This document shows, piece after piece, positions 3,746 through 11,766 of a DNA stretch of 64,000 nucleotides. Location: the sequence record PZ809289.1, one strand, 5' to 3'. Numbering within the stretch: the stretch's first letter is position 1; every line of letters begins with the position of its first letter. The notes under the pieces were generated by a model. It was not told the DNA's origin and searched no databases. It saw nothing but the letters and a program-made list of their open reading frames with translations. The DNA comes from a phage. A program made the position numbers and the translations under genes.

Positions 3746-3780
3746 AGACCTATCAAAACAACAGAGTGAAGGAGAGTAAA

Positions 3781-4044
3781 ATGGATAATTATGGTGAAGT
3801 GTTTAATTTCTTTATGAAATGCGTTCCTGAAGAATTTGGTGCTACTGTTAACGATATTAAAGTTATCGGCCCTGAACACCCGGTGTATGAAACCTATGCA
3901 GTAATGGGTAATGAAGATGGACAGTGGTATACAATTAAAGTTGTGATTAATATGTTCTCAGCTGAAGGTTACGCCAAATCGTCTACCAAAGTTTACCATG
4001 GTAATGATTTTGATGCAGAAAATTATTTCAATAATATGAAATAA
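3781..4044 (+). CDS. hypothetical protein
   Basis: ATG 3781 after GGAGAG; track start 3766 is GTG. Confidence 0.5.
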   Translation: MDNYGEVFNFFMKCVPEEFGATVNDIKVIGPEHPVYETYAVMGNEDGQWYTIKVVINMFSAEGYAKSSTKVYHGNDFDAENYFNNMK

Positions 4045-4047
4045 AAC

Positions 4048-4077
4048 GTTTACATGGGCTCATGATTAAGATATTAT
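4048..4077 (+). promoter_or_regulatory. early promoter with inverted repeat flanking -10
   Basis: GTTTAC 4048-4053, TATTAT 4072-4077, palindrome ATGGGCTCAT...ATGAGCCCAT. Confidence 0.5.
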
Positions 4078-4102: not shown

Positions 4103-4501
4103 ATGAATATCGAAGATAAAGAAATGCAAGAGTTGTATAATTCATTAACACCTGAACAACAAAAATATGCCAAAGAACTAGAGAAAGCTCTTACTTTCAA
4201 CTTGGCAAAAACTGATTGGGCCGCTATGTATGAAGAAAAAACTAGATTAGAACTTGAAGCCGTCGAAAGAAATGAATGGATTGTCGAAACCAAGATTTCT
4301 GATGGTGGTTGCTCTGTTGAGGTGTCAGCTGTAGTTAAAGGTACTCATGGTGAAAAATCATGGGGCTGGCATAATGAAGCAAACAAACATATTGTTCTCT
4401 CAACGTCAAAAACTTATGGCCAAAGGGCTCCTGTATCCAAAGCTATTATTAAGCAAGCTCAATGGGAAGCCAATGAAATTTGCCTCGCAAAAATGAAATA
4501 A
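4103..4501 (+). CDS. hypothetical protein
   Basis: SD GAGGAG 7 nt upstream; 132 aa. Confidence 0.55.
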   Translation: MNIEDKEMQELYNSLTPEQQKYAKELEKALTFNLAKTDWAAMYEEKTRLELEAVERNEWIVETKISDGGCSVEVSAVVKGTHGEKSWGWHNEANKHIVLSTSKTYGQRAPVSKAIIKQAQWEANEICLAKMK

Positions 4502-4504
4502 AAT

Positions 4505-4534
4505 GTTTACAAACCTCAGAGGACAGGGTATAAT
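4505..4534 (+). promoter_or_regulatory. early promoter (GTTTAC / TATAAT)
   Basis: GTTTAC 4505-4510, TATAAT 4529-4534 inside palindrome GAGGACA...TGTCCTC. Confidence 0.5.
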
Positions 4535-4577: not shown

Positions 4578-5171
4578 ATGAACACTTTAAAGAAAATCGT
4601 TGAATTCATCCGTTCTAAACTGGGTACTGCAATGGCTCAGAACCTGTCAATCGAAGACCAGTATACTAAAGCTGCTTCTACCCTGATTGATAAAATCACT
4701 GAACTCCAGACTGCTCATGTTAAGTCTGTGAATGAAGAAAAACGTATTCGTGCGTTGGCTAATGAAAAAGACCAACTGGCTGCTTCTAAAGAACGTGAAA
4801 TTCGTAAACTGATTGCCGAAGGCGCTGATGTCCAGGTACATGCTAAACTTGGCCTCCTTTATCGTCGTACAGCTACTCAGCTTCGTAAGAAAGCTGATGA
4901 TTATATCGAAATGCGTAATGAAATTAAACTGAAGGTTAAGGAACTTGATGACTCTCGTCAGGAACTGGCTGTTAAGCTCGAGTACATCCGTGAAACTCGT
5001 AATATGGCTGCCCTTGGTATTGCTACTGCCGATGATGTTGTTGAAATCGCTGCACTGACTAAGATTGATATTGAAGACACCCTACTGCGTGTAGAAACGT
5101 TTAAAGGCCCGCAAGTTGGAATGGATACGACTTCTGCCGATATCGACGACTACATTAATTCACTTAAGTAA
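4578..5171 (+). CDS. coiled-coil protein (PspA/IM30-like architecture, speculative)
   Basis: 197 aa, heptad-rich Lys/Glu/Arg sequence throughout; SD GGAAA. Confidence 0.55.
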
Positions 5172-5178
5172 TGTTATT

Positions 5179-5201
5179 GGGAGACTTCGGTCTCCCTATT
5201 T
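5179..5201 (+). terminator. possible terminator or RNA stability hairpin
   Basis: GGGAGAC-TTCG-GTCTCCC followed by TATTT (weak T-run). Confidence 0.3.
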
Positions 5202-5219: not shown

Positions 5220-5756
5220 ATGAGTTTATATGATAACCTTATATCAAATATTGATTGGTTTAAAAATAGTGGTCTTTCCCATGAAACCAATGCAGTTCTT
5301 TATAGAATTCGCCAAGACCTAGGCTATTCAAACGATTTCTTAAGCAGAACATCTAGCCGTGGCGATACTACCAAATTACCTTTTATTTTTGCTTTAGCTG
5401 AAGACCTTTCTTTTGAAGATGCTTTGGAAATTATTGACGTAAATCTGGCTATTCAACGAGTGGAATTCGCTGGACTACGTTATTCAGTATATTCTTTAAA
5501 CGAGAGCGCTGATTGTGTGCTTCTTAATATGGCAGACGATGATTACCATTTAGTATGCTATGTAGCTTTAGAAAATGGTGATGTATTTGGAATGGTTGAC
5601 CGTCGCCCATCTTACTCTGATATTAAAAATTACGATAAAGATGAGCTTATTATTTTGGCTAATGAGTACACATTAGAAAGTCGTAAACAACAACGTAAGC
5701 TTAATCGTTTTATTGCTGAATGTCGCGAATACGCTAAAGAGGTTCAAAATGCATAA
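5220..5756 (+). CDS. hypothetical protein
   Basis: Strong SD GGAGGAGAGGAG; 178 aa; C-terminal region contains NRFIAECR motif shared with two other genes. Confidence 0.6.
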   Translation: MSLYDNLISNIDWFKNSGLSHETNAVLYRIRQDLGYSNDFLSRTSSRGDTTKLPFIFALAEDLSFEDALEIIDVNLAIQRVEFAGLRYSVYSLNESADCVLLNMADDDYHLVCYVALENGDVFGMVDRRPSYSDIKNYDKDELIILANEYTLESRKQQRKLNRFIAECREYAKEVQNA

Positions 5757-6102
5757 GCCTAGTAAAACCGACCCTGGTTACGCATTAGCAGATTACGATA
5801 TCTCTATTTCATTATTCCTCGGCATTGCTACTAGTATGACTGCAGGGATAATTGGATTTCTTGTCGGTGGGATTATTAATGGTATGCCTCGCCATCCGTT
5901 TGAAGATATGAGCCTCGCGTGGATTTGGGTTCCGGCTTTAATAGGATTTTTTATCCCATGGGTCTTTGATATTGCCCAAACTAATAAAATAAACAAGCCA
6001 CGTAAAAAGAGATATGCTTTAGCTATGGCTAATTATAATGAGTATGTAAAACAAACTAAACGTAATGACCTTGAAACCTTTATTAAGGAATGTAAATCAT
6101 GA
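5749..6102 (+). CDS. membrane protein
   Basis: ATG 5749 overlapping upstream stop, SD AAAGAGG; two hydrophobic helices; C-terminal ETFIKECKS. Confidence 0.5.
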   Translation: MHKPSKTDPGYALADYDISISLFLGIATSMTAGIIGFLVGGIINGMPRHPFEDMSLAWIWVPALIGFFIPWVFDIAQTNKINKPRKKRYALAMANYNEYVKQTKRNDLETFIKECKS

Positions 6103-6389
6103 ATAAAATTGAAATTGAAATCCCGGAACACAATGACGAGAAATCTGCAGAAAAGGCTATCTATGCTCTTCTGAATAAAGTGAATACCATCGAACATGAA
6201 TGTGAAGCTATTGCCGATAAGTATGGTATCCAATTCGGTACTGGTGATTATGGTTCAGGCCGTACATATTATCCTGTCGGTTATGAATGCTCCCAGTGGT
6301 TTAAAGATGAAATTGAAAACAACGGTGGTGAAGTTGAAAATGGCGTCGTTACAGTTGGTGCTTGGATCTCCTCTTCGGCAATGTGCTAA
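6099..6389 (+). CDS. small acidic protein, member 1 of a tandem paralog array ending in C-terminal Cys
   Basis: ATGA overlap; ends GAWISSSAMC; shares ADKYG core with next gene. Confidence 0.6.
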   Translation: MNKIEIEIPEHNDEKSAEKAIYALLNKVNTIEHECEAIADKYGIQFGTGDYGSGRTYYPVGYECSQWFKDEIENNGGEVENGVVTVGAWISSSAMC

Positions 6390-6398
6390 GGAAATTTT

Positions 6399-6680
6399 AT
6401 GATGAATGATTACCATAAAAATAAAGAGCTGGCTGACGCAGTAAATGATATCCACAAAGCTATTCGTCGTGCTGAGGAAATTGCTGACAAATATGAGACT
6501 CATTTTAATATATACCCTGCTCGCGGTATGGGCGGTGACTATTATTCTCCTGGCGCCTTGAAAGCCGACCTTGCCCACTGGGAAGAATACGGTGAAGCTC
6601 AGTACGCTATTGTAAACCAACATGATTACACTACCAGCCTAGAAAATGGTGGTTGGGTGTCCTCTTCTTCTGAATGTTAA
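6399..6680 (+). CDS. small acidic protein, paralog 2
   Basis: SD AAGGAAA; ends GGWVSSSSEC. Confidence 0.6.
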   Translation: MMNDYHKNKELADAVNDIHKAIRRAEEIADKYETHFNIYPARGMGGDYYSPGALKADLAHWEEYGEAQYAIVNQHDYTTSLENGGWVSSSSEC

Positions 6681-6689
6681 GGAAATAAA

Positions 6690-6902
6690 ATGACTATTGA
6701 TGAAATTGAAAACCAAATCCGTGAATTAGTACGTAAAGGCCAGTCTGTGGCTGACGAAACGGGTGAAGAGTTCCGTGTTTCTGGTCGTGGAGAATACATT
6801 TCTCCAAAGAACCCGGAATATGATGATTACGAATGGGTCCGTGATGACTACGGTATTCCGGAAGGTGAAGGTTTCTGGTTTACATCCTCTATGTCTTGCT
6901 AA
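6690..6902 (+). CDS. small acidic protein, paralog 3
   Basis: SD AAGGAAA; ends GFWFTSSMSC. Confidence 0.6.
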   Translation: MTIDEIENQIRELVRKGQSVADETGEEFRVSGRGEYISPKNPEYDDYEWVRDDYGIPEGEGFWFTSSMSC

Positions 6903-6913
6903 GGTGATAAAAA

Positions 6914-7138
6914 ATGTCTGATATTAATGAATTAGAAAAAGCTGCACTTGAACTGGCTGCACTGTATAAGAAAGTAAAAGATATGGCTTCTGCTCAAAGT
7001 TTTGGTGTTGAGCTCGACGATTATGACGGTGAAGTTCGTCTCGAAGATTGGCTGAATAGCTCGTGTTATGGCGAAGAAGCTGGTCGCACCTTCGTTGCTC
7101 GGGCCGATGGTAAAATCTGGTATCCGAGCTCATGCTAA
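6914..7138 (+). CDS. small acidic protein, paralog 4
   Basis: SD AAGGTGA; ends KIWYPSSC. Confidence 0.6.
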   Translation: MSDINELEKAALELAALYKKVKDMASAQSFGVELDDYDGEVRLEDWLNSSCYGEEAGRTFVARADGKIWYPSSC

Positions 7139-7359
7139 AATTAAAGAAAAGATACATTCGTAAAATAAATGGTCTTCGCGATTATGCCAAAGGTTGGCCG
7201 TTAAGTATTATTATGGCTGATAGACACCCGCGTTATAATACTGAGATGACTTATTACAAAAAGTACGATTCATATTGTCGGTCTAAAGCAGGTCGTTTAG
7301 ATGGTTCTTATGAAGACTATTTCGGTAAAAAACCTACTCGTATTTCGTTAGGAAAATAA
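7132..7359 (+). CDS. hypothetical basic protein
   Basis: ORF overlapping preceding stop; 75 aa. Confidence 0.4.
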   Translation: MLKLKKRYIRKINGLRDYAKGWPLSIIMADRHPRYNTEMTYYKKYDSYCRSKAGRLDGSYEDYFGKKPTRISLGK

Positions 7360-7389
7360 TTTAACCACATGGATGTGGTAGGAGGACTT

Positions 7390-7719
7390 ATGCATAAAGA
7401 TTCAGTATTCAAATATCTTTTGAAAACAAATAAAGAATTCTATATGAATGGACAGGCCTTCTTGTTCGTTCGTGGTAAACGTGAGATGTTTTACAAATGC
7501 GACCTCTCAATGCACCATCATATGTATCACACCCGCGGTGAGCCTATACTGGGGTTCTCTGGTGACGAGACTAGACACATAGCTATGTACTACGACCATT
7601 TTAAGCTCAATGATTGTGGTGACAACGCTTTGGTCTGGAACCCGTCTTGGCGTCGTTGGGATACAGTAGACAATGATAAATTATTTTTAGAATATTGCAG
7701 AAGTGATGTACAACTCTAG
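7390..7719 (+). CDS. hypothetical protein
   Basis: ATG 7390 four nt after GGAGG; His/Cys-rich. Confidence 0.5.
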   Translation: MHKDSVFKYLLKTNKEFYMNGQAFLFVRGKREMFYKCDLSMHHHMYHTRGEPILGFSGDETRHIAMYYDHFKLNDCGDNALVWNPSWRRWDTVDNDKLFLEYCRSDVQL

Positions 7720-7762
7720 AAAATCATGTTACTATTACCCTACACAAACATGAGGAGAACAT

Positions 7763-8002
7763 ATGTGGTATTACGCTCCGATGTCCGATAAGTCTAATGA
7801 ACCGGTACGCATTACTCGCGCCAAGTTTAAAAAGATTTATGGCTTCTCTTATAAGAAGTCTGATTACGGTGTTCGTTTTGAAGATGCCCACTGTATCAAT
7901 GACCCTTATGCTGAAGAAATCTCTAATGAGATAATTCCTATCATTAAGAATAATTCTGATGATATGTGGGAATTGCATAACGATTACGTCGCTGAAATTT
8001 AA
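7763..8002 (+). CDS. hypothetical protein
   Basis: SD GAGGAG; 79 aa. Confidence 0.5.
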   Translation: MWYYAPMSDKSNEPVRITRAKFKKIYGFSYKKSDYGVRFEDAHCINDPYAEEISNEIIPIIKNNSDDMWELHNDYVAEI

Positions 8003-8021
8003 GTTTACTGAGGAAAATATT

Positions 8022-8981
8022 ATGATGTTAGTTATTGGTTCTCGTGCACTGCACCACGCTGGTCTGATTGAAAGTAAGCATATCGAAAATTCTGATTGGG
8101 ATTTCATTGCCGACCAAGGCTCATGGAATCACTTTAAAGCACGTATGTTCGGCGCCCATGTACACGTTGACAATCCTGATGTCCAGGCTTTCAAATGTAT
8201 GCATAATGGTAAAGAAACCTATTTTGAAGCTTATATCGTTCGTGCTCTGACTAACGTACGAGAAATTACCGGTGAGCTTCAAGACGAAGATTTCACTTCA
8301 AGCTATCGTCTCCTGAAATATGCTGAAAATCATATTAAAAAGGACCGTCTTACTGGTTTCTATTGGGCCACCCCTGATATCTGTCTGGCTATCAAAACCT
8401 CTCATCGTTTCCTTAAGAATAATCCGTTCTTCTTGAAAACCATGTCCCACATCAAATACCTTCGTAATAAAGGTATCACCCTTAACGAAGAACTCCAGGA
8501 AATTATGTTGCAACGTCAAAAAGAAACGTTGAGCTATTCCCACCCTAAATTGGATGTAAACAAATCATCGTTCTTTAATGATACCATTTATACGCTGGAC
8601 CATGACTCTATTCATGAAGCAGTGGCATTGGCAGGGCGCCCTGCATATACCTTTTATATGAAGGAAGGTTCTGAAGTCATGACCTCTCGTGAGAAGTTCG
8701 AGGCTTTGCCTGAAGCTATTAAACTGGCTGGTGTATATGAAGAAACTTGTGTCCTGGCACTAGAACGTTCACAGGTTCCTAATGACTTCAATATTTCACC
8801 ATCATTAAGTTTTTATATGGCTCTTGAGAAAGTGTGTACCTCAATCACTTCAGGTTGGTTCCGCGAGTACGCCTGGGAAAACTACCAAGCTGTAGTGAAT
8901 ATGTATAAGACTTTAGGTGAAAACGACTACATTGAACGGTTTAAGCGTAACCAACATTTAATTCGTCCTTTCGAAAAATAA
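8022..8981 (+). CDS. putative nucleotidyltransferase-fold protein
   Basis: ATG 8022 after GAGGAAA; N-terminal IGSRALHHAGLIESKHIENSDWDFI resembles minimal NTase G-S...D-x-D motif, later HVHVD; about 320 aa. Confidence 0.45.
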   Translation: MMLVIGSRALHHAGLIESKHIENSDWDFIADQGSWNHFKARMFGAHVHVDNPDVQAFKCMHNGKETYFEAYIVRALTNVREITGELQDEDFTSSYRLLKYAENHIKKDRLTGFYWATPDICLAIKTSHRFLKNNPFFLKTMSHIKYLRNKGITLNEELQEIMLQRQKETLSYSHPKLDVNKSSFFNDTIYTLDHDSIHEAVALAGRPAYTFYMKEGSEVMTSREKFEALPEAIKLAGVYEETCVLALERSQVPNDFNISPSLSFYMALEKVCTSITSGWFREYAWENYQAVVNMYKTLGENDYIERFKRNQHLIRPFEK

Positions 8982-8993
8982 TTGCACAAAACA

Positions 8994-9022
8994 GTGTACA
9001 AGGTCTATAGGTGTGATACTAT
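8994..9022 (+). promoter_or_regulatory. early promoter cassette (near-identical copy of the 400-428 cassette)
   Basis: GTGTAC 8994-8999, TACTAT 9017-9022, palindrome AGGTCTATAG/CTATAGACCT. Confidence 0.55.
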
Positions 9023-9059
9023 AGACCTATCAAAACAACAGAGTGAAATGGAGAATAAA

Positions 9060-9272
9060 ATGAAACTTTCTAACCAAGCAATCAACATGTTAAACGAAGT
9101 TCGTGCAGCTGGTGCTAAATGCCTGATGGTTAACACTCGTGACGGTGACCTTCGTCAAGCATTTGGTGAATTGAAATCTGCTGACCTGGTTAAATGTTCA
9201 GTTGGTATTGGTAACGCACTTCGTGTATCCTTATCTCCTAAAGGTAAAATGTACTTTTTCAACAAAAAGTAA
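9060..9272 (+). CDS. hypothetical protein
   Basis: ATG 9060 six nt after GGAG; leader identical to the leader of gene 465-650. Confidence 0.5.
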   Translation: MKLSNQAINMLNEVRAAGAKCLMVNTRDGDLRQAFGELKSADLVKCSVGIGNALRVSLSPKGKMYFFNKK

Positions 9273-9286
9273 GTGAGGAAAATATT

Positions 9287-9973
9287 ATGAACGGTCCGAA
9301 AACTTTTAATTCTAAAGCTCGTGCAGTAGGTGGTTTTGCAGGTCATATTTCTAATGATGATATTAAAAACGAGCCTATGTTCTTTAACTGTGATTTGAAT
9401 TTTGCTGCACAAAATGGTGGTCCTATTACTCGTAGCTTTATTACTAATCTCCCTGATGAGTGGAAAGCCGTTGAATGCGTATTTGATTCCCGTGTACACA
9501 TGTTAATGCCCGGCTGGTACCCTGCAATTCCAGGCTTCCACCATGATGATGTACCCCGTCCGGATATTCCGGTTGGTCAACACTTTATTACCGCAGGGCA
9601 ACCTGATTATGATAATCCTCGATACCATTCTGAACATATTCTTGGTCTTGTTAACGCTGATGTGTGTCCTACTCATTTTGCAACCGGAACTGCCCAGTTC
9701 AGTCAGATTCCTGAAGGCGAACTTATCTATCGCCAGTGGCATAAAGAAGTTCTGGAAAAAATTGAGTCTAATGAATTAACTAAGTGGGATGCTCCTGACC
9801 GCACGTTGCTCCAGTTTGATTGGCAGACATGGCATACAGGTTCTCGTGCAGTAAGTAACGGTTGGCGCTGGTTTGGTCGTGTGTCTCGTAATACAGACCG
9901 TGTTAAAAAGATTACAAATGAAATCCGCGTTAATGCTCAAGTATATCTGGAATTTCCTATGGAGGGCTGGTAA
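9287..9973 (+). CDS. putative 2OG-Fe(II) oxygenase-like protein
   Basis: FHHDD (HxD), distal His in WHTGS and RWFGRVS (RxS) in the order expected for the 2-oxoglutarate dioxygenase fold; SD GAGGAAA. Confidence 0.45.
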   Translation: MNGPKTFNSKARAVGGFAGHISNDDIKNEPMFFNCDLNFAAQNGGPITRSFITNLPDEWKAVECVFDSRVHMLMPGWYPAIPGFHHDDVPRPDIPVGQHFITAGQPDYDNPRYHSEHILGLVNADVCPTHFATGTAQFSQIPEGELIYRQWHKEVLEKIESNELTKWDAPDRTLLQFDWQTWHTGSRAVSNGWRWFGRVSRNTDRVKKITNEIRVNAQVYLEFPMEGW

Positions 9974-10566
9974 TGGCCCTTTATGAACCTGGATGTATGG
10001 GTATTGATACAAACTTCATCCGTCGGTCGGAAAATGCCGGAATTATTATCCCAAGTGGTGAACATATGATTATTAAAAAGTCCTGGCGAAATATCGATGA
10101 CGGTGATGAAGGAATTTCAGCCAGTACAATAGATTGGTCAGGTTGTACTGCCGAAATGAAACAGCTTTTAATTGAGGAGTTCAGAATGGGTTATATCGTA
10201 AATGGTTGGCAACCGGTAAAGAAAATCACCCGCACTGACGATAAGTATATTTGTCTCCAAGATGGAAAGGCTAAGCTCATTGATACTGAATGGCTTACGT
10301 TCGGACGATATGTTGTAGCGTATTTTATTACTTTACTTCCAATGATAGTGTTGAGTTCATTTTTAATCGACGCCAATTGGAATGATGCGCTAGAACGAAC
10401 TATTATTGGTGCGGGATTAATGAACCTTTTCACCGCTGGAGCTGCTTTAAGTATTTGGTGCTTGGCTATTGAAATGCCATGGCGTTTACGTCGTCAACAA
10501 CGTCTTTACGACGAAGGTAAAAACAAACATAATTTAAATGAGTTTATTAAGGAATGCCGTAAATGA
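9973..10566 (+). CDS. membrane protein
   Basis: TAATG overlap; hydrophobic helices; C-terminal NLNEFIKECRK. Confidence 0.55.
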   Translation: MALYEPGCMGIDTNFIRRSENAGIIIPSGEHMIIKKSWRNIDDGDEGISASTIDWSGCTAEMKQLLIEEFRMGYIVNGWQPVKKITRTDDKYICLQDGKAKLIDTEWLTFGRYVVAYFITLLPMIVLSSFLIDANWNDALERTIIGAGLMNLFTAGAALSIWCLAIEMPWRLRRQQRLYDEGKNKHNLNEFIKECRK

Positions 10567-10799
10567 GTATTGCAATTTATATTAAATCTGAGTCATGTGA
10601 TTCTTATCTGTATTCCTATGATACCGGAACGTCAGAAGAGAAAATCAAAGAAGATTTAGAAAGCGACTTGGGTATGTTCTGTCCTATTGGTGACTATATG
10701 CTTCAAGTGTCTGATAGTGAAAGTCCATCATCAGAAAATAGACTTCAAATTATTATGCAAGATATTTTTAAACAATCATGGGAACGAGACGATGAGTAA
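10563..10799 (+). CDS. small acidic protein
   Basis: ATGA overlap; 78 aa. Confidence 0.4.
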   Translation: MSIAIYIKSESCDSYLYSYDTGTSEEKIKEDLESDLGMFCPIGDYMLQVSDSESPSSENRLQIIMQDIFKQSWERDDE

Positions 10800-11241
10800 G
10801 AAAGCTAAGGAATTATCGGCAGGTATTTTGTTCATGACCGTTGATAAAGAACTGGTCATGGGTCGTGTAACAGGCTCTCGTAATCCAGAGAACATGCGTC
10901 ATAAATGGGACATTCCTAAAGGCCATGTCGAACCAGGCGAAGAGCCTATTCAAGCGGCAATGCGCGAAACCGAAGAAGAGATTGGATTCACAGCATACGA
11001 TCCTGCATTCCTGAAAGACCTAGGTGAGTTCAAATATTCAAGCAATAAGAATCTACATCTGTTCTTATATACGGTGCCTGTGGAACACGAGCAGTTCAAG
11101 GATTGCAAATGTACGGCTTACCATACGTTCCCTGATGGTCGTACTATTCCTGAATTCGATGCTTTTGCCTTGATTAAACGTCCGCAATGGGAATATGTCA
11201 TGGGCCCGTCGATGTTTAAGGTTTTAGATTCGCTCTTTTGA
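10792..11241 (+). CDS. nudE: Nudix hydrolase NudE
   Basis: Nudix box GHVEPGEEPIQAAMRETEEEIG; immediately upstream of lysozyme e as T4 e.1; ATG 10792 chosen over track start. Confidence 0.8.
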   Translation: MSKKAKELSAGILFMTVDKELVMGRVTGSRNPENMRHKWDIPKGHVEPGEEPIQAAMRETEEEIGFTAYDPAFLKDLGEFKYSSNKNLHLFLYTVPVEHEQFKDCKCTAYHTFPDGRTIPEFDAFALIKRPQWEYVMGPSMFKVLDSLF

Positions 11242-11271: not shown

Positions 11272-11766
11272 ATGGATATTTTTGATATGTTACGCCTTGA
11301 TGAAGGCTGTAAATTAGACTTATATAAGGATACTGAGGGATACTATACTATTGGTATTGGCCAATTGATTACTAAGAATCCTTCTAAAGATGTTGCTCGG
11401 GCTGAACTTGATAAGCTTATGGGCCGGGTTTGTAACGGACGTATTACTATGGCTGAAGCCGAACAACTTTTTAACAGGTCGGTTGAAAATGCTCGTAGAG
11501 CTATTCTGCGTAATCCTAAATTGAAACCTGTTTATGATGTACTGGACGAAGTTCGTCGTTGTGCTTTAATTAACATGGTATTCCAAATGGGTGAAGCAGG
11601 TGTAGCTGGGTTCACTAACTCTTTACGTATGCTCCAACAGAAACGTTGGAATGATGCGGCAGTTAACCTGGCTCAATCCCGTTGGTATAAACAAACCCCT
11701 AATCGTGCTAAGCGCGTGATTTCTACATTTAAAACAGGTACTTGGAAAGCATATGAAAACTTATAA
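11272..11766 (+). CDS. e: T4-type lysozyme (endolysin) e
   Basis: 164 aa, near-colinear with T4 lysozyme ([22 protein letters not shown]..., catalytic E11/D20/T26 region conserved). Confidence 0.95.

Follow-up and report, generated by a model that had tools for sequence, protein, structure and literature searches.

This report concerns a stretch of 64,000 nucleotides (nt) of phage DNA (sequence record PZ809289.1), referred to here as the window, and a short C-terminal peptide, the tag, carried by three of its proteins, which we call P1, P2 and P3. The phage is a Tevenvirinae member of the JS98/Dhakavirus-like kind, near JS98, VR5 and other Dhaka-/Gaprivervirus-type phages, and Escherichia phage vB_EcoM-E33 has 97.5% DNA identity to this region. 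Its gene order is as in T4 (e.8, e.6, block, nudE, e), and the block under study consists of the e.5-to-e.2 genes, between e.6 and nudE. The tagged genes, the copies of the tag and the Shine-Dalgarno sequences in or near them are the following (aa, amino acids; TM, transmembrane):

5220..5756, + strand: P1, soluble protein of 178 aa, probable divergent counterpart of T4 e.5, first gene after e.6
5700..5726, + strand: tag copy 1, L-N-R-F-I-A-E-C-R, followed by a 9-aa tail
5736..5742, + strand: AAAGAGG, Shine-Dalgarno of P2, in the P1 tail 3' of the tag (from the sequence and the junction table)
5749..6102, + strand: P2, inner-membrane protein of 117 aa with two TM helices, T4 e.3 orthologue and distant e.4 paralogue
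6070..6096, + strand: tag copy 2, L-E-T-F-I-K-E-C-K, with the stop after one more residue
6085..6090, + strand: AAGGAA (the K-E codons of tag copy 2), Shine-Dalgarno for the gene starting at 6099
9973..10566, + strand: P3, 197 aa (N-terminal domain in the cytoplasm, two TM helices, charged tail), T4/T6 e.2 orthologue
10534..10560, + strand: tag copy 3, L-N-E-F-I-K-E-C-R, with the stop after one more residue
10549..10554, + strand: AAGGAA (the K-E codons of tag copy 3), Shine-Dalgarno for the gene starting at 10563; GAGGAA in E-E orthologues

The three copies stand at the gene ends where the preliminary description had placed them: P1 terminates in ...RKLNRFIAECREYAKEVQNA, P2 in ...NDLETFIKECKS and P3 in ...HNLNEFIKECRK, each followed by the stop codon. 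Each gene also overlaps its downstream neighbour as had been claimed, P1 and P2 by 8 nt, and P2 and P3 with their respective followers through ATGA. Counting from the phenylalanine as position 0, the shared residues are L(-3), F(0), I(+1), E(+3), C(+4) and K/R(+5); the leading N-x-x-x of the motif as first written has to be given up, being out of register among the copies (Asn at -2 in P1, at -5 in P2 and at -4/-2 in P3). F-I-x-E-C-[KR] occurs three times in the 127,996 six-frame codons of the 64 kb, each time ending a real gene, where residue frequencies predict 0.052 copies (Poisson probability of three or more, 2e-5). No copy appeared in 60 first-order Markov simulations, and with a relaxed pattern the only matches to real genes in the window were still P1, P2 and P3.

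Outside this peptide the proteins are, as had been noted, one soluble and two membrane proteins with otherwise unrelated bodies. Hydropathy counts agree with the distinction, as do the model helices of P3 (108-133 and 139-183), and in profile comparisons by hhalign nothing but 12-17 tag columns can be aligned from one family to another. P2 is assigned to e.3 (phrog_2330, E 1e-43; BLASTP against T4 e.3, E 9e-11 over the full length, and against e.4, E 6e-4), and it has what distinguishes the e.3 family (phrog_2330): a length of about 120 aa, an M-x-K-P N-terminus, two TM helices, RKK, a Y-N-x-Y segment and the tail. P3 is assigned to e.2 (phrog_2203, E 1.7e-69; 45% identity to T6 e.2; Pfam entry PF26896 in the precomputed annotation of its homologues) and shows the N-terminal DDGD-G-I...DW..C domain, the two TM helices, the basic patch and the C-terminal tail of that family, at a place just upstream of nudE. 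It also has a 31-residue N-terminal extension (9973-10065; MALYEPGCMG.D.NFIRRSENAGII...) that is absent from e.2 of T4, T6 and Mosigvirus. Since this extension is conserved at the protein level in Dhaka-/Gaprivervirus-type orthologues, the long frame from 9973 is probably real in this lineage.

The assignment of P1 is more remote. It matches phrog_8788 at E 5.8e-116 and the e.5 family phrog_2607 weakly (E 0.0058); in a pairwise comparison with T4 e.5 only the C-terminal 15 residues are shared (L-x-x-F-[IV]-x-E-C-R-E-Y-x-K), and hhalign gives 66% over 38 columns. The same program aligns P1 with the proteins found at the e.5 position in Karamvirus-like phages, Pectobacterium PM2 and Klebsiella F48-like phages with 81% probability over 158 columns, and these proteins with T4 e.5 at 97.5%. 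Judged by such remote homology via intermediate proteins, P1 is probably a fast-evolving e.5, and the protein at this position would then be one that diverges past recognition and retains its tag. Searches of Pfam, NCBIfam and PDB sequences with P1, P2, P3, their T4 homologues and e.6 returned nothing above noise.

In T4 and T6 the tag is found on four adjacent genes, e.5, e.4, e.3 and e.2, whose products end in ...LLEKFVKECREYVKAITIPSK, ...IMKFVKESRCKSQS, ...MKEFVIDCRKIK and ...LNNFITECRKLK, respectively, each followed by the stop codon. The T4 proteins correspond to PHROGs 2607, 2604, 2330 and 2203, labelled "conserved hypothetical" or "predicted membrane"; T4 is among the best-studied viruses and, to our knowledge, about half of its genes, including e.2 to e.8, are without a known function. 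In all six frames of the complete T4 genome (168,908 bp), F[IV]x[ED]C[KR] is confined to e.5, e.3 and the e.2 frame, and e.4 carries the variant FVKESRCK. The e.2 gene of T4 is frameshifted (locus L001, MT984581.1, 6001-6488): the annotated 102-aa e.2 ends after the first TM helix, and the second TM helix and the tag are encoded in another frame, in a 63-codon open reading frame (ORF) that overlaps the start of nudE.

The window differs from T4 in being without e.4 and in having about 3.9 kb of other genes between its e.3 and e.2 counterparts. In VR25, VR20 and VR26 (loci L013, L017 and L018) an e.4-like gene of 119-125 aa, ending in ...AEEFIKEVRNGTA and stop, separates the P1 homologue from that of P2. 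This gene has been lost from the window phage: P1 overlaps P2 directly, and the e.4 start, located in the E-Y codons of e.5, has changed from GAATATG to GAATAC.

Loci of T4-like phages were fetched by anchoring on e.2 and on a conserved neighbour of 228 aa (see below), plus annotated records, and families were counted at the BLAST level after removal of the tag. About 17 such families are tagged, about 10 of them two-TM membrane proteins and about 6 soluble, with 3-5 copies per genome, and the tagged proteins represent at least 8 different PHROGs. The phages that carry them are Tequatro-, Mosig-, Dhaka-, Gapriver- and Karamvirus-like, together with Citrobacter Moon, Pectobacterium PM2 and the Klebsiella F48-like group. 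The family-wide consensus is hydrophobic-x-x-[F/W]-[I/V]-x-x-C-[R/K], 1 to 16 residues before the stop, with examples such as FIKQCRR, FVKGCRN, FVDQCRA, FINSCRI, FIENCKN, FIMQCRM, FINLCRD, FIKNCRR, FIKSCRK, FINQCRR, FIKHCRE, FIKYCRG, WIKGCRK and WVKGCRK. Matches to the relaxed pattern no more than 20 residues from a stop number 59 of 68 on the plus strand and 6 of 16 on the minus strand.

Within families the tag persists as the protein bodies diverge. A search of related phages had been proposed in the preliminary description, and in it the motif proved to be conserved in orthologues down to 42-50% identity, including those of T4 and T6. In P2 orthologues down to 50% identity LE[TI]FIKECKS is constant save for the Thr/Ile exchange at -1, and tag copy 2 is the most conserved 10-column window of the P2 family alignment; tag copy 3 ranks second in the P3 family. 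All 13 of the full-length e.2-family sequences retrieved in a profile search (below), which are representatives of 50% clusters, end in [F/W]-I-x-x-C-R despite unalignable TM regions. In the e.4-like family the cysteine is replaced by V, M, I or S (FIKEVR, FVMEMRK, FLKEMRK, FVKEIR, FVKESR). Position +3 is acidic in every tag of the T4, T6, Mosig-, Dhaka- and Gaprivervirus-type genomes (n=19) and non-acidic (G, Q, N, S, H, Y or L) in almost every tag of the Karamvirus-like, Moon, PM2 and F48-like phages, in several families at once.

A HMMER profile search of 1.84 billion representative proteins found 18 e.2 relatives only. In 27 loci that are more distant and were fetched through the 228-aa protein the tag is absent, which is uninformative, since most of them are without the entire e.6-to-nudE context. 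In Aeromonas phage CC2, e.6 is followed by two e.5-like proteins ending in S-F-V-[ND]-Y-C, which may be a distant variant of the tag.

Two readings of the motif had been offered at first, a protein-level interaction tag and a nucleotide-level signal constraining the 3' end of the gene. Orthologues and codon usage bear out conservation at the protein level; the nucleotide-level reading fails as the cause of the motif and survives as a Shine-Dalgarno element. In the nucleotide alignment of the three gene ends that had been suggested, DNA identity amounts to just TTTATT...GAATG, that is, the preferred codons for F, I, E and the first two positions of that for C. In a set of 73 distinct tag-coding sequences, drawn from all the loci fetched, Phe is encoded by TTT in 49 and TTC in 19, Ile by ATT in 36, ATC in 14 and ATA in 6, Cys by TGT in 34 and TGC in 32, and Arg by CGT in 21, AGA in 16, AGG in 13, CGA in 7, CGC in 7 and CGG in 4. 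The drift is visible among orthologues (TGT/TGC, CGT/CGC/AGA/AGG, CTT/TTA/CTA, ATT/ATC, GTT/GTG), in which the peptide stays constant while the proteins drop to 50% identity in the P2 family and 42% in the P3 family; overall, the tag is near-invariant where the remaining protein falls to 25-45% identity. Folding of the RNA at the three junctions of the window is no stronger than in shuffled controls (z = -0.44, +0.99 and +0.75) and reveals no shared hairpin. Because the codons drift, the peptide is fixed and the junction RNA is unstructured, the tag must be under selection at the amino-acid level. It is thus a real element, restricted to the block, kept by purifying selection on its amino acids and common to families that are otherwise dissimilar.

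The opposite explanation would be that the 3' ends are kept as an initiation region, a coupling signal or a recombination junction, the peptide being a by-product. Its attraction lies in the proximity of the next gene, whose start codon is found, in most of the junctions listed, between 7 nt before and 28 nt after the end of the tag, and in the presence within the tag of AAGGAA, GAGGAA, AAAGG or AGGAAA as Shine-Dalgarno sequence. In the Mosigvirus moskry, moreover, a tag-coding end survives a deleted e.3 body, and a natural e.4/e.2 chimera (protein P0070) exists. A nucleotide coupling element, however, would not be expected to use every synonymous codon for the conserved residues, Arg codons of both families among them, nor to lie at distances from the next ATG that range from -7 to +245 nt. 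The Shine-Dalgarno sequence shifts among the tag codons with the peptide unchanged, and tags are kept at distances of 99-230 nt from the next gene, in moskry e.4 and Karamvirus-like e.2. In P1 the x-E positions read GCT GAA and lie 22 nt 5' of the P2 start codon; since P2 uses its own AAAGAGG in the P1 tail, the P1 tag is not the source of its Shine-Dalgarno. Finally, the three junctions have neither RNA structure nor a promoter or hairpin cassette (27 promoter-like matches versus 27.1 in shuffles, and no hairpin). We therefore regard this explanation as largely refuted and highly improbable.

What acts as a nucleotide signal is the embedded Shine-Dalgarno hexamer alone. With a single residue between tag and stop, the x(+2)-E(+3) codons are AAGGAA or GAGGAA (AAAGG in K-G tags) and place it 8-10 nt 5' of the overlapping start codon; when a three-residue tail follows, as in T4/T6 e.3 and e.2, the R-K codons form AGGAAA instead. 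The Shine-Dalgarno of the overlapping downstream gene is thus a secondary overlay, supplied by the variable residues and by which Arg codon is used. This makes the tag a clear example of dual coding, the free positions of a selected peptide serving as the ribosome-binding site of the next gene.

The rearranged loci themselves deserve description. In moskry (locus L019, 961-1090) an e.3 remnant has lost its body: the first 16 codons (MQKPELNL...) survive, and the tag-coding end is part of a 25-codon mini-ORF (MISYNELLARRENETIENFIKECRK and stop) whose frame differs from that of the 16-codon piece. An early-promoter-like GTTTAC...TATAAT lies between the two pieces, and the tag-coding end still provides an AAGGAA Shine-Dalgarno to the next gene; a free tag peptide might be produced. 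P0070 joins the N-terminal 30 residues of e.4 (MSKPSLYLPSEPVKYELKRQLIPTDVLIGP) to the C-terminal half of e.2, comprising the TM helices and ...NNFITECRKLK, which indicates deletion or recombination inside the block. From the moskry remnant and the P0070 chimera it follows that junctions of the block do recombine.

Another explanation makes the tag a relic of common descent: the tagged genes would have arisen as diverged tandem duplicates or by 3'-end fusions, and the tail would simply be the piece that evolves most slowly, without a function in common. The block is hyperplastic, and modular shuffling in such regions of T4-type phages has been documented (PMC2839356, PMC4122927). Full-length paralogy of T4 e.3 and e.4 (E 0.002), the weak match of a Mosigvirus 101-aa protein to the TM-plus-tail half of e.2 (phrog_2203, E 0.0015) and the fact that the e.5-position proteins form one very divergent family all agree with this origin. 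Under neutrality, though, near-invariance would not be expected given bodies that are 25-45% identical or have diverged past detection and synonymous sites that are saturated, and the soluble and membrane families have nothing else in common. As a full account, descent without function is very unlikely in our view; it can account for the origin of the tag, not for its maintenance.

In the membrane proteins the tag closes a K/R/E-rich segment of about 15-35 residues that comes after the last TM helix and a basic patch; the spacing from the last TM helix to the tag is not fixed, ranging from about 15 to 38 residues in clean cases. By the positive-inside rule the tag of these proteins should be cytoplasmic, and the tags of soluble e.5-type proteins and of membrane proteins would then share the cytoplasmic side. 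The spacing of L(-3), F(0), I/V(+1) and C(+4), i, i+3, i+4, i+7, brings them to a single face of an alpha-helix, with a helical hydrophobic moment of 0.39-0.67 and a mean hydrophobicity of -0.01 to -0.50. AlphaFold2 (AF2) models place the tag of P1 inside a C-terminal helix, 140-177, at low confidence, and that of P3 in a short terminal helix, 188-196, after the helices 108-133 and 139-183.

A C-terminal, amphipathic helix flanked by K/R, present on soluble as well as membrane proteins of one block, could also act as a membrane-surface anchor of the MinD and FtsA kind, lying flat in the inner membrane and needing no protein partner. Soluble proteins of the e.5 type would thereby reach the membrane, and the tails of the two-TM proteins would be held against it. 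The hydrophobic moment of the tag exceeds the 0.27 that we computed for a MinD targeting sequence. Helices that bind lipid, however, keep composition, not sequence, whereas here F, I/V, C and R/K are near-invariant in about 17 families. The hydrophobic face is made up of just four residues, mean hydrophobicity is low and acidic residues are frequent, and lineage-specific covariation at +3 is unexpected for lipid binding. For these reasons we think an anchor rather unlikely.

The cysteine invites a different explanation, being the single invariant column among 23 tags of different families. Its thiols might form an inter-subunit metal site or disulfide, several tagged proteins being present per genome, or it might accept a modification, either covalent or redox. 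The near-equal use of TGT and TGC indicates that the residue is what is selected, R or K always stands next to it, and a basic residue beside Cys would lower the thiol pKa; the block also often encodes small proteins ending in ...SSSxxC. Against this, the entire e.4-like family has V, M, I or S at +4, which fits a buried hydrophobic position, the tag lacks a second ligand residue, and no modifying enzyme co-occurs in T4. Disulfides are unlikely since the tag is cytoplasmic. A role centred on cysteine chemistry is, on balance, unlikely, and the pattern of replacements suggests instead that +4 is a buried position at which Cys is preferred without being chemically indispensable.

The genes that frame the block in the window are listed below.

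3766-4044: e.8 counterpart
4578..5171, + strand: e.6 homologue, 197 aa, helical, conserved (phrog_1203)
about 10792-11241: nudE
11272-11766: lysozyme gene e

The e.6 gene lies directly upstream of the first tag-bearing gene in T4 and in every tag-positive locus that extends far enough, the cut locus L023 alone being too short, and the same placement is seen in Aeromonas phage CC2. By this adjacency e.6 becomes a candidate partner of the tag.

The explanation that we propose, and to which we give an even chance, is that the tag is a protein-level C-terminal docking helix on the products of the e.5-to-e.2 block in T4-like phages of Enterobacterales. The interaction role is one that we infer from the sequences. 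Small early proteins of changing repertoire would dock through the tag helix, at the cytoplasmic face of the inner membrane, to one common partner or to each other, with a host protein and the always-adjacent e.6 as candidates for the partner. That +3 changes in several families of a genome at once fits a shared partner or a tag-tag contact. A further step, possible but in our opinion doubtful, is that the tag is the address label of a modular effector system in which soluble and membrane effectors plug into a single hub. Such a hub, a host protein or e.6, would sit at the cytoplasmic face of the inner membrane, and new effectors would be recruited by gaining a junction made of tag plus ribosome-binding site. 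If this held, the orphan T4 genes e.2 to e.6 would share a function, and the tag peptide could serve as bait in finding it.

Several observations weigh against the docking helix. The tag is short, with about six constrained positions, and both proposed partners are candidates only. With a mean predicted local distance difference test score (pLDDT) of 44 for P1 and 57 for P3, the AF2 models are usable for secondary structure alone. The covariation at +3 may go back to just one or two branches of the phage tree, or to gene conversion among paralogues. Since e.2 is frameshifted in T4, at least one tagged member is dispensable in the laboratory; since the e.4-like proteins have V, M, I or S at +4, the thiol is not universally required; and in the moskry DNA the tag-coding 3' end has a nucleotide-level role too, one that has outlasted the body of e.3.

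The strictly conserved C-terminal peptide ties four adjacent T4 genes and about 17 related families into one functional group, and offers a direct experimental handle through baits, point mutants and tag swaps. Full-text literature searches by gene names and tag peptides found no description of the motif; it appears to be a new short linear motif, its sequence, its distribution and the link it makes among T4 e.2 to e.5 being undescribed. We expect it to come as a modest surprise to T4 specialists.

Other features of the region were recorded along the way. Between e.6 and P1, positions 5179-5196 form a GC-rich hairpin whose 7-bp stem is perfect and whose loop is UUCG (GGGAGAC-TTCG-GTCTCCC). TATTT comes after it, and it lies immediately 5' of the P1 ribosome-binding region GGAGGAGAGGAG. 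A consensus terminator scan did not call this hairpin, which could be an attenuating terminator or a hairpin that stabilises the mRNA. The best two sigma-70-type matches of the region, at 4506-4534 and 4049-4077 (TTTACA-17-TATAAT, 11/12, and TTTACA-17-TATTAT, 10/12), lie upstream of e.6 and of the gene at 4103, respectively, and resemble T4 early promoters; e.6, P1 and P2 may be a single early transcription unit.

Downstream of P2, positions 6099-7138 hold four tandem genes (6099-6389, 6399-6680, 6690-6902 and 6914-7138) for small soluble proteins of PHROG 899, which end in W-x-[ST]-S-S-x-x-C with Cys as the last residue (WISSSAMC, WVSSSSEC, WFTSSMSC and WYPSSC, each followed by stop). The family is present in 2-5 copies in moskry, Enterobacter MY742, Klebsiella F48-like phages and Aeromonas CC2, and has none in T4/T6; with a leader, a Ser/Cys-rich C-terminus and multiple copies it resembles peptide-precursor genes. 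The 228-aa neighbour used as an anchor is encoded at 9287-9973 (phrog_1843, no Pfam or NCBIfam match) and has an invariant C-terminus, ...VYLEFPMEGW and stop. It is 80-88% identical among Dhaka-like, Mosigvirus and Enterobacter phages, and is found at 48-75% identity on about 27 viral contigs, most of them without e.6, nudE or e as neighbours.

Certain identities could be set aside. The tag profile had its best match among PDB sequences at E 0.11, and P1, P2 and P3 have none above threshold in Pfam-A or NCBIfam. Mimicry of SecE was suggested by an amphipathic helix of the M. jannaschii protein (EQLKEFIEECRR), which the profile matches in PDB at only E 0.15-0.3, a chance level; SecE of the host E. 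coli scores -2.1 bits, within the shuffled range. Nor does the tag represent the prohead-protease site, I-x-E, because the Glu is unconserved outside the T4/Mosig/Dhaka clade and the proteins are early and cytoplasmic or membrane-bound.

Among known systems, promoter-early stem-loop (PeSL) cassettes mediate modular shuffling in T4-type hyperplastic regions (PMC2839356, PMC4122927). Like them, the tag is a repeat at gene boundaries of a hyperplastic region, and the moskry remnant even has GTTTAC...TATAAT; unlike them, it is a repeat conserved as protein. A PeSL cassette at the window junctions was rejected, the promoters being at background, hairpins lacking and the genes overlapping, which leaves no intergenic space. 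ATGA-type coupling with a Shine-Dalgarno in the upstream gene is matched by the hexamer that lies in the tag 8-10 nt before the overlapping start; in contrast to a plain Shine-Dalgarno overlap, the hexamer explains at most two of the nine tag codons, and these differ between genes. With the targeting helices of MinD and FtsA the tag shares its shortness, C-terminal location, amphipathic character and basic flanks, but those helices keep composition only, whereas the tag is conserved residue by residue, has Cys and acidic residues and is of low mean hydrophobicity.

The T4 capsid targeting sequence is a short peptide common to unrelated proteins (IPI, IPII, IPIII and Alt) that sends them to one destination; it is N-terminal and is cut off by the prohead protease. 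The tag differs from it in being C-terminal, in its sequence, in belonging to early membrane or cytoplasmic proteins and in showing no sign of cleavage. In both cases, nevertheless, one short peptide is found on several unrelated small proteins, and the T4 ip genes are close neighbours of the e.5-to-e.2 block, so that the capsid targeting sequence provides the closest analogy.

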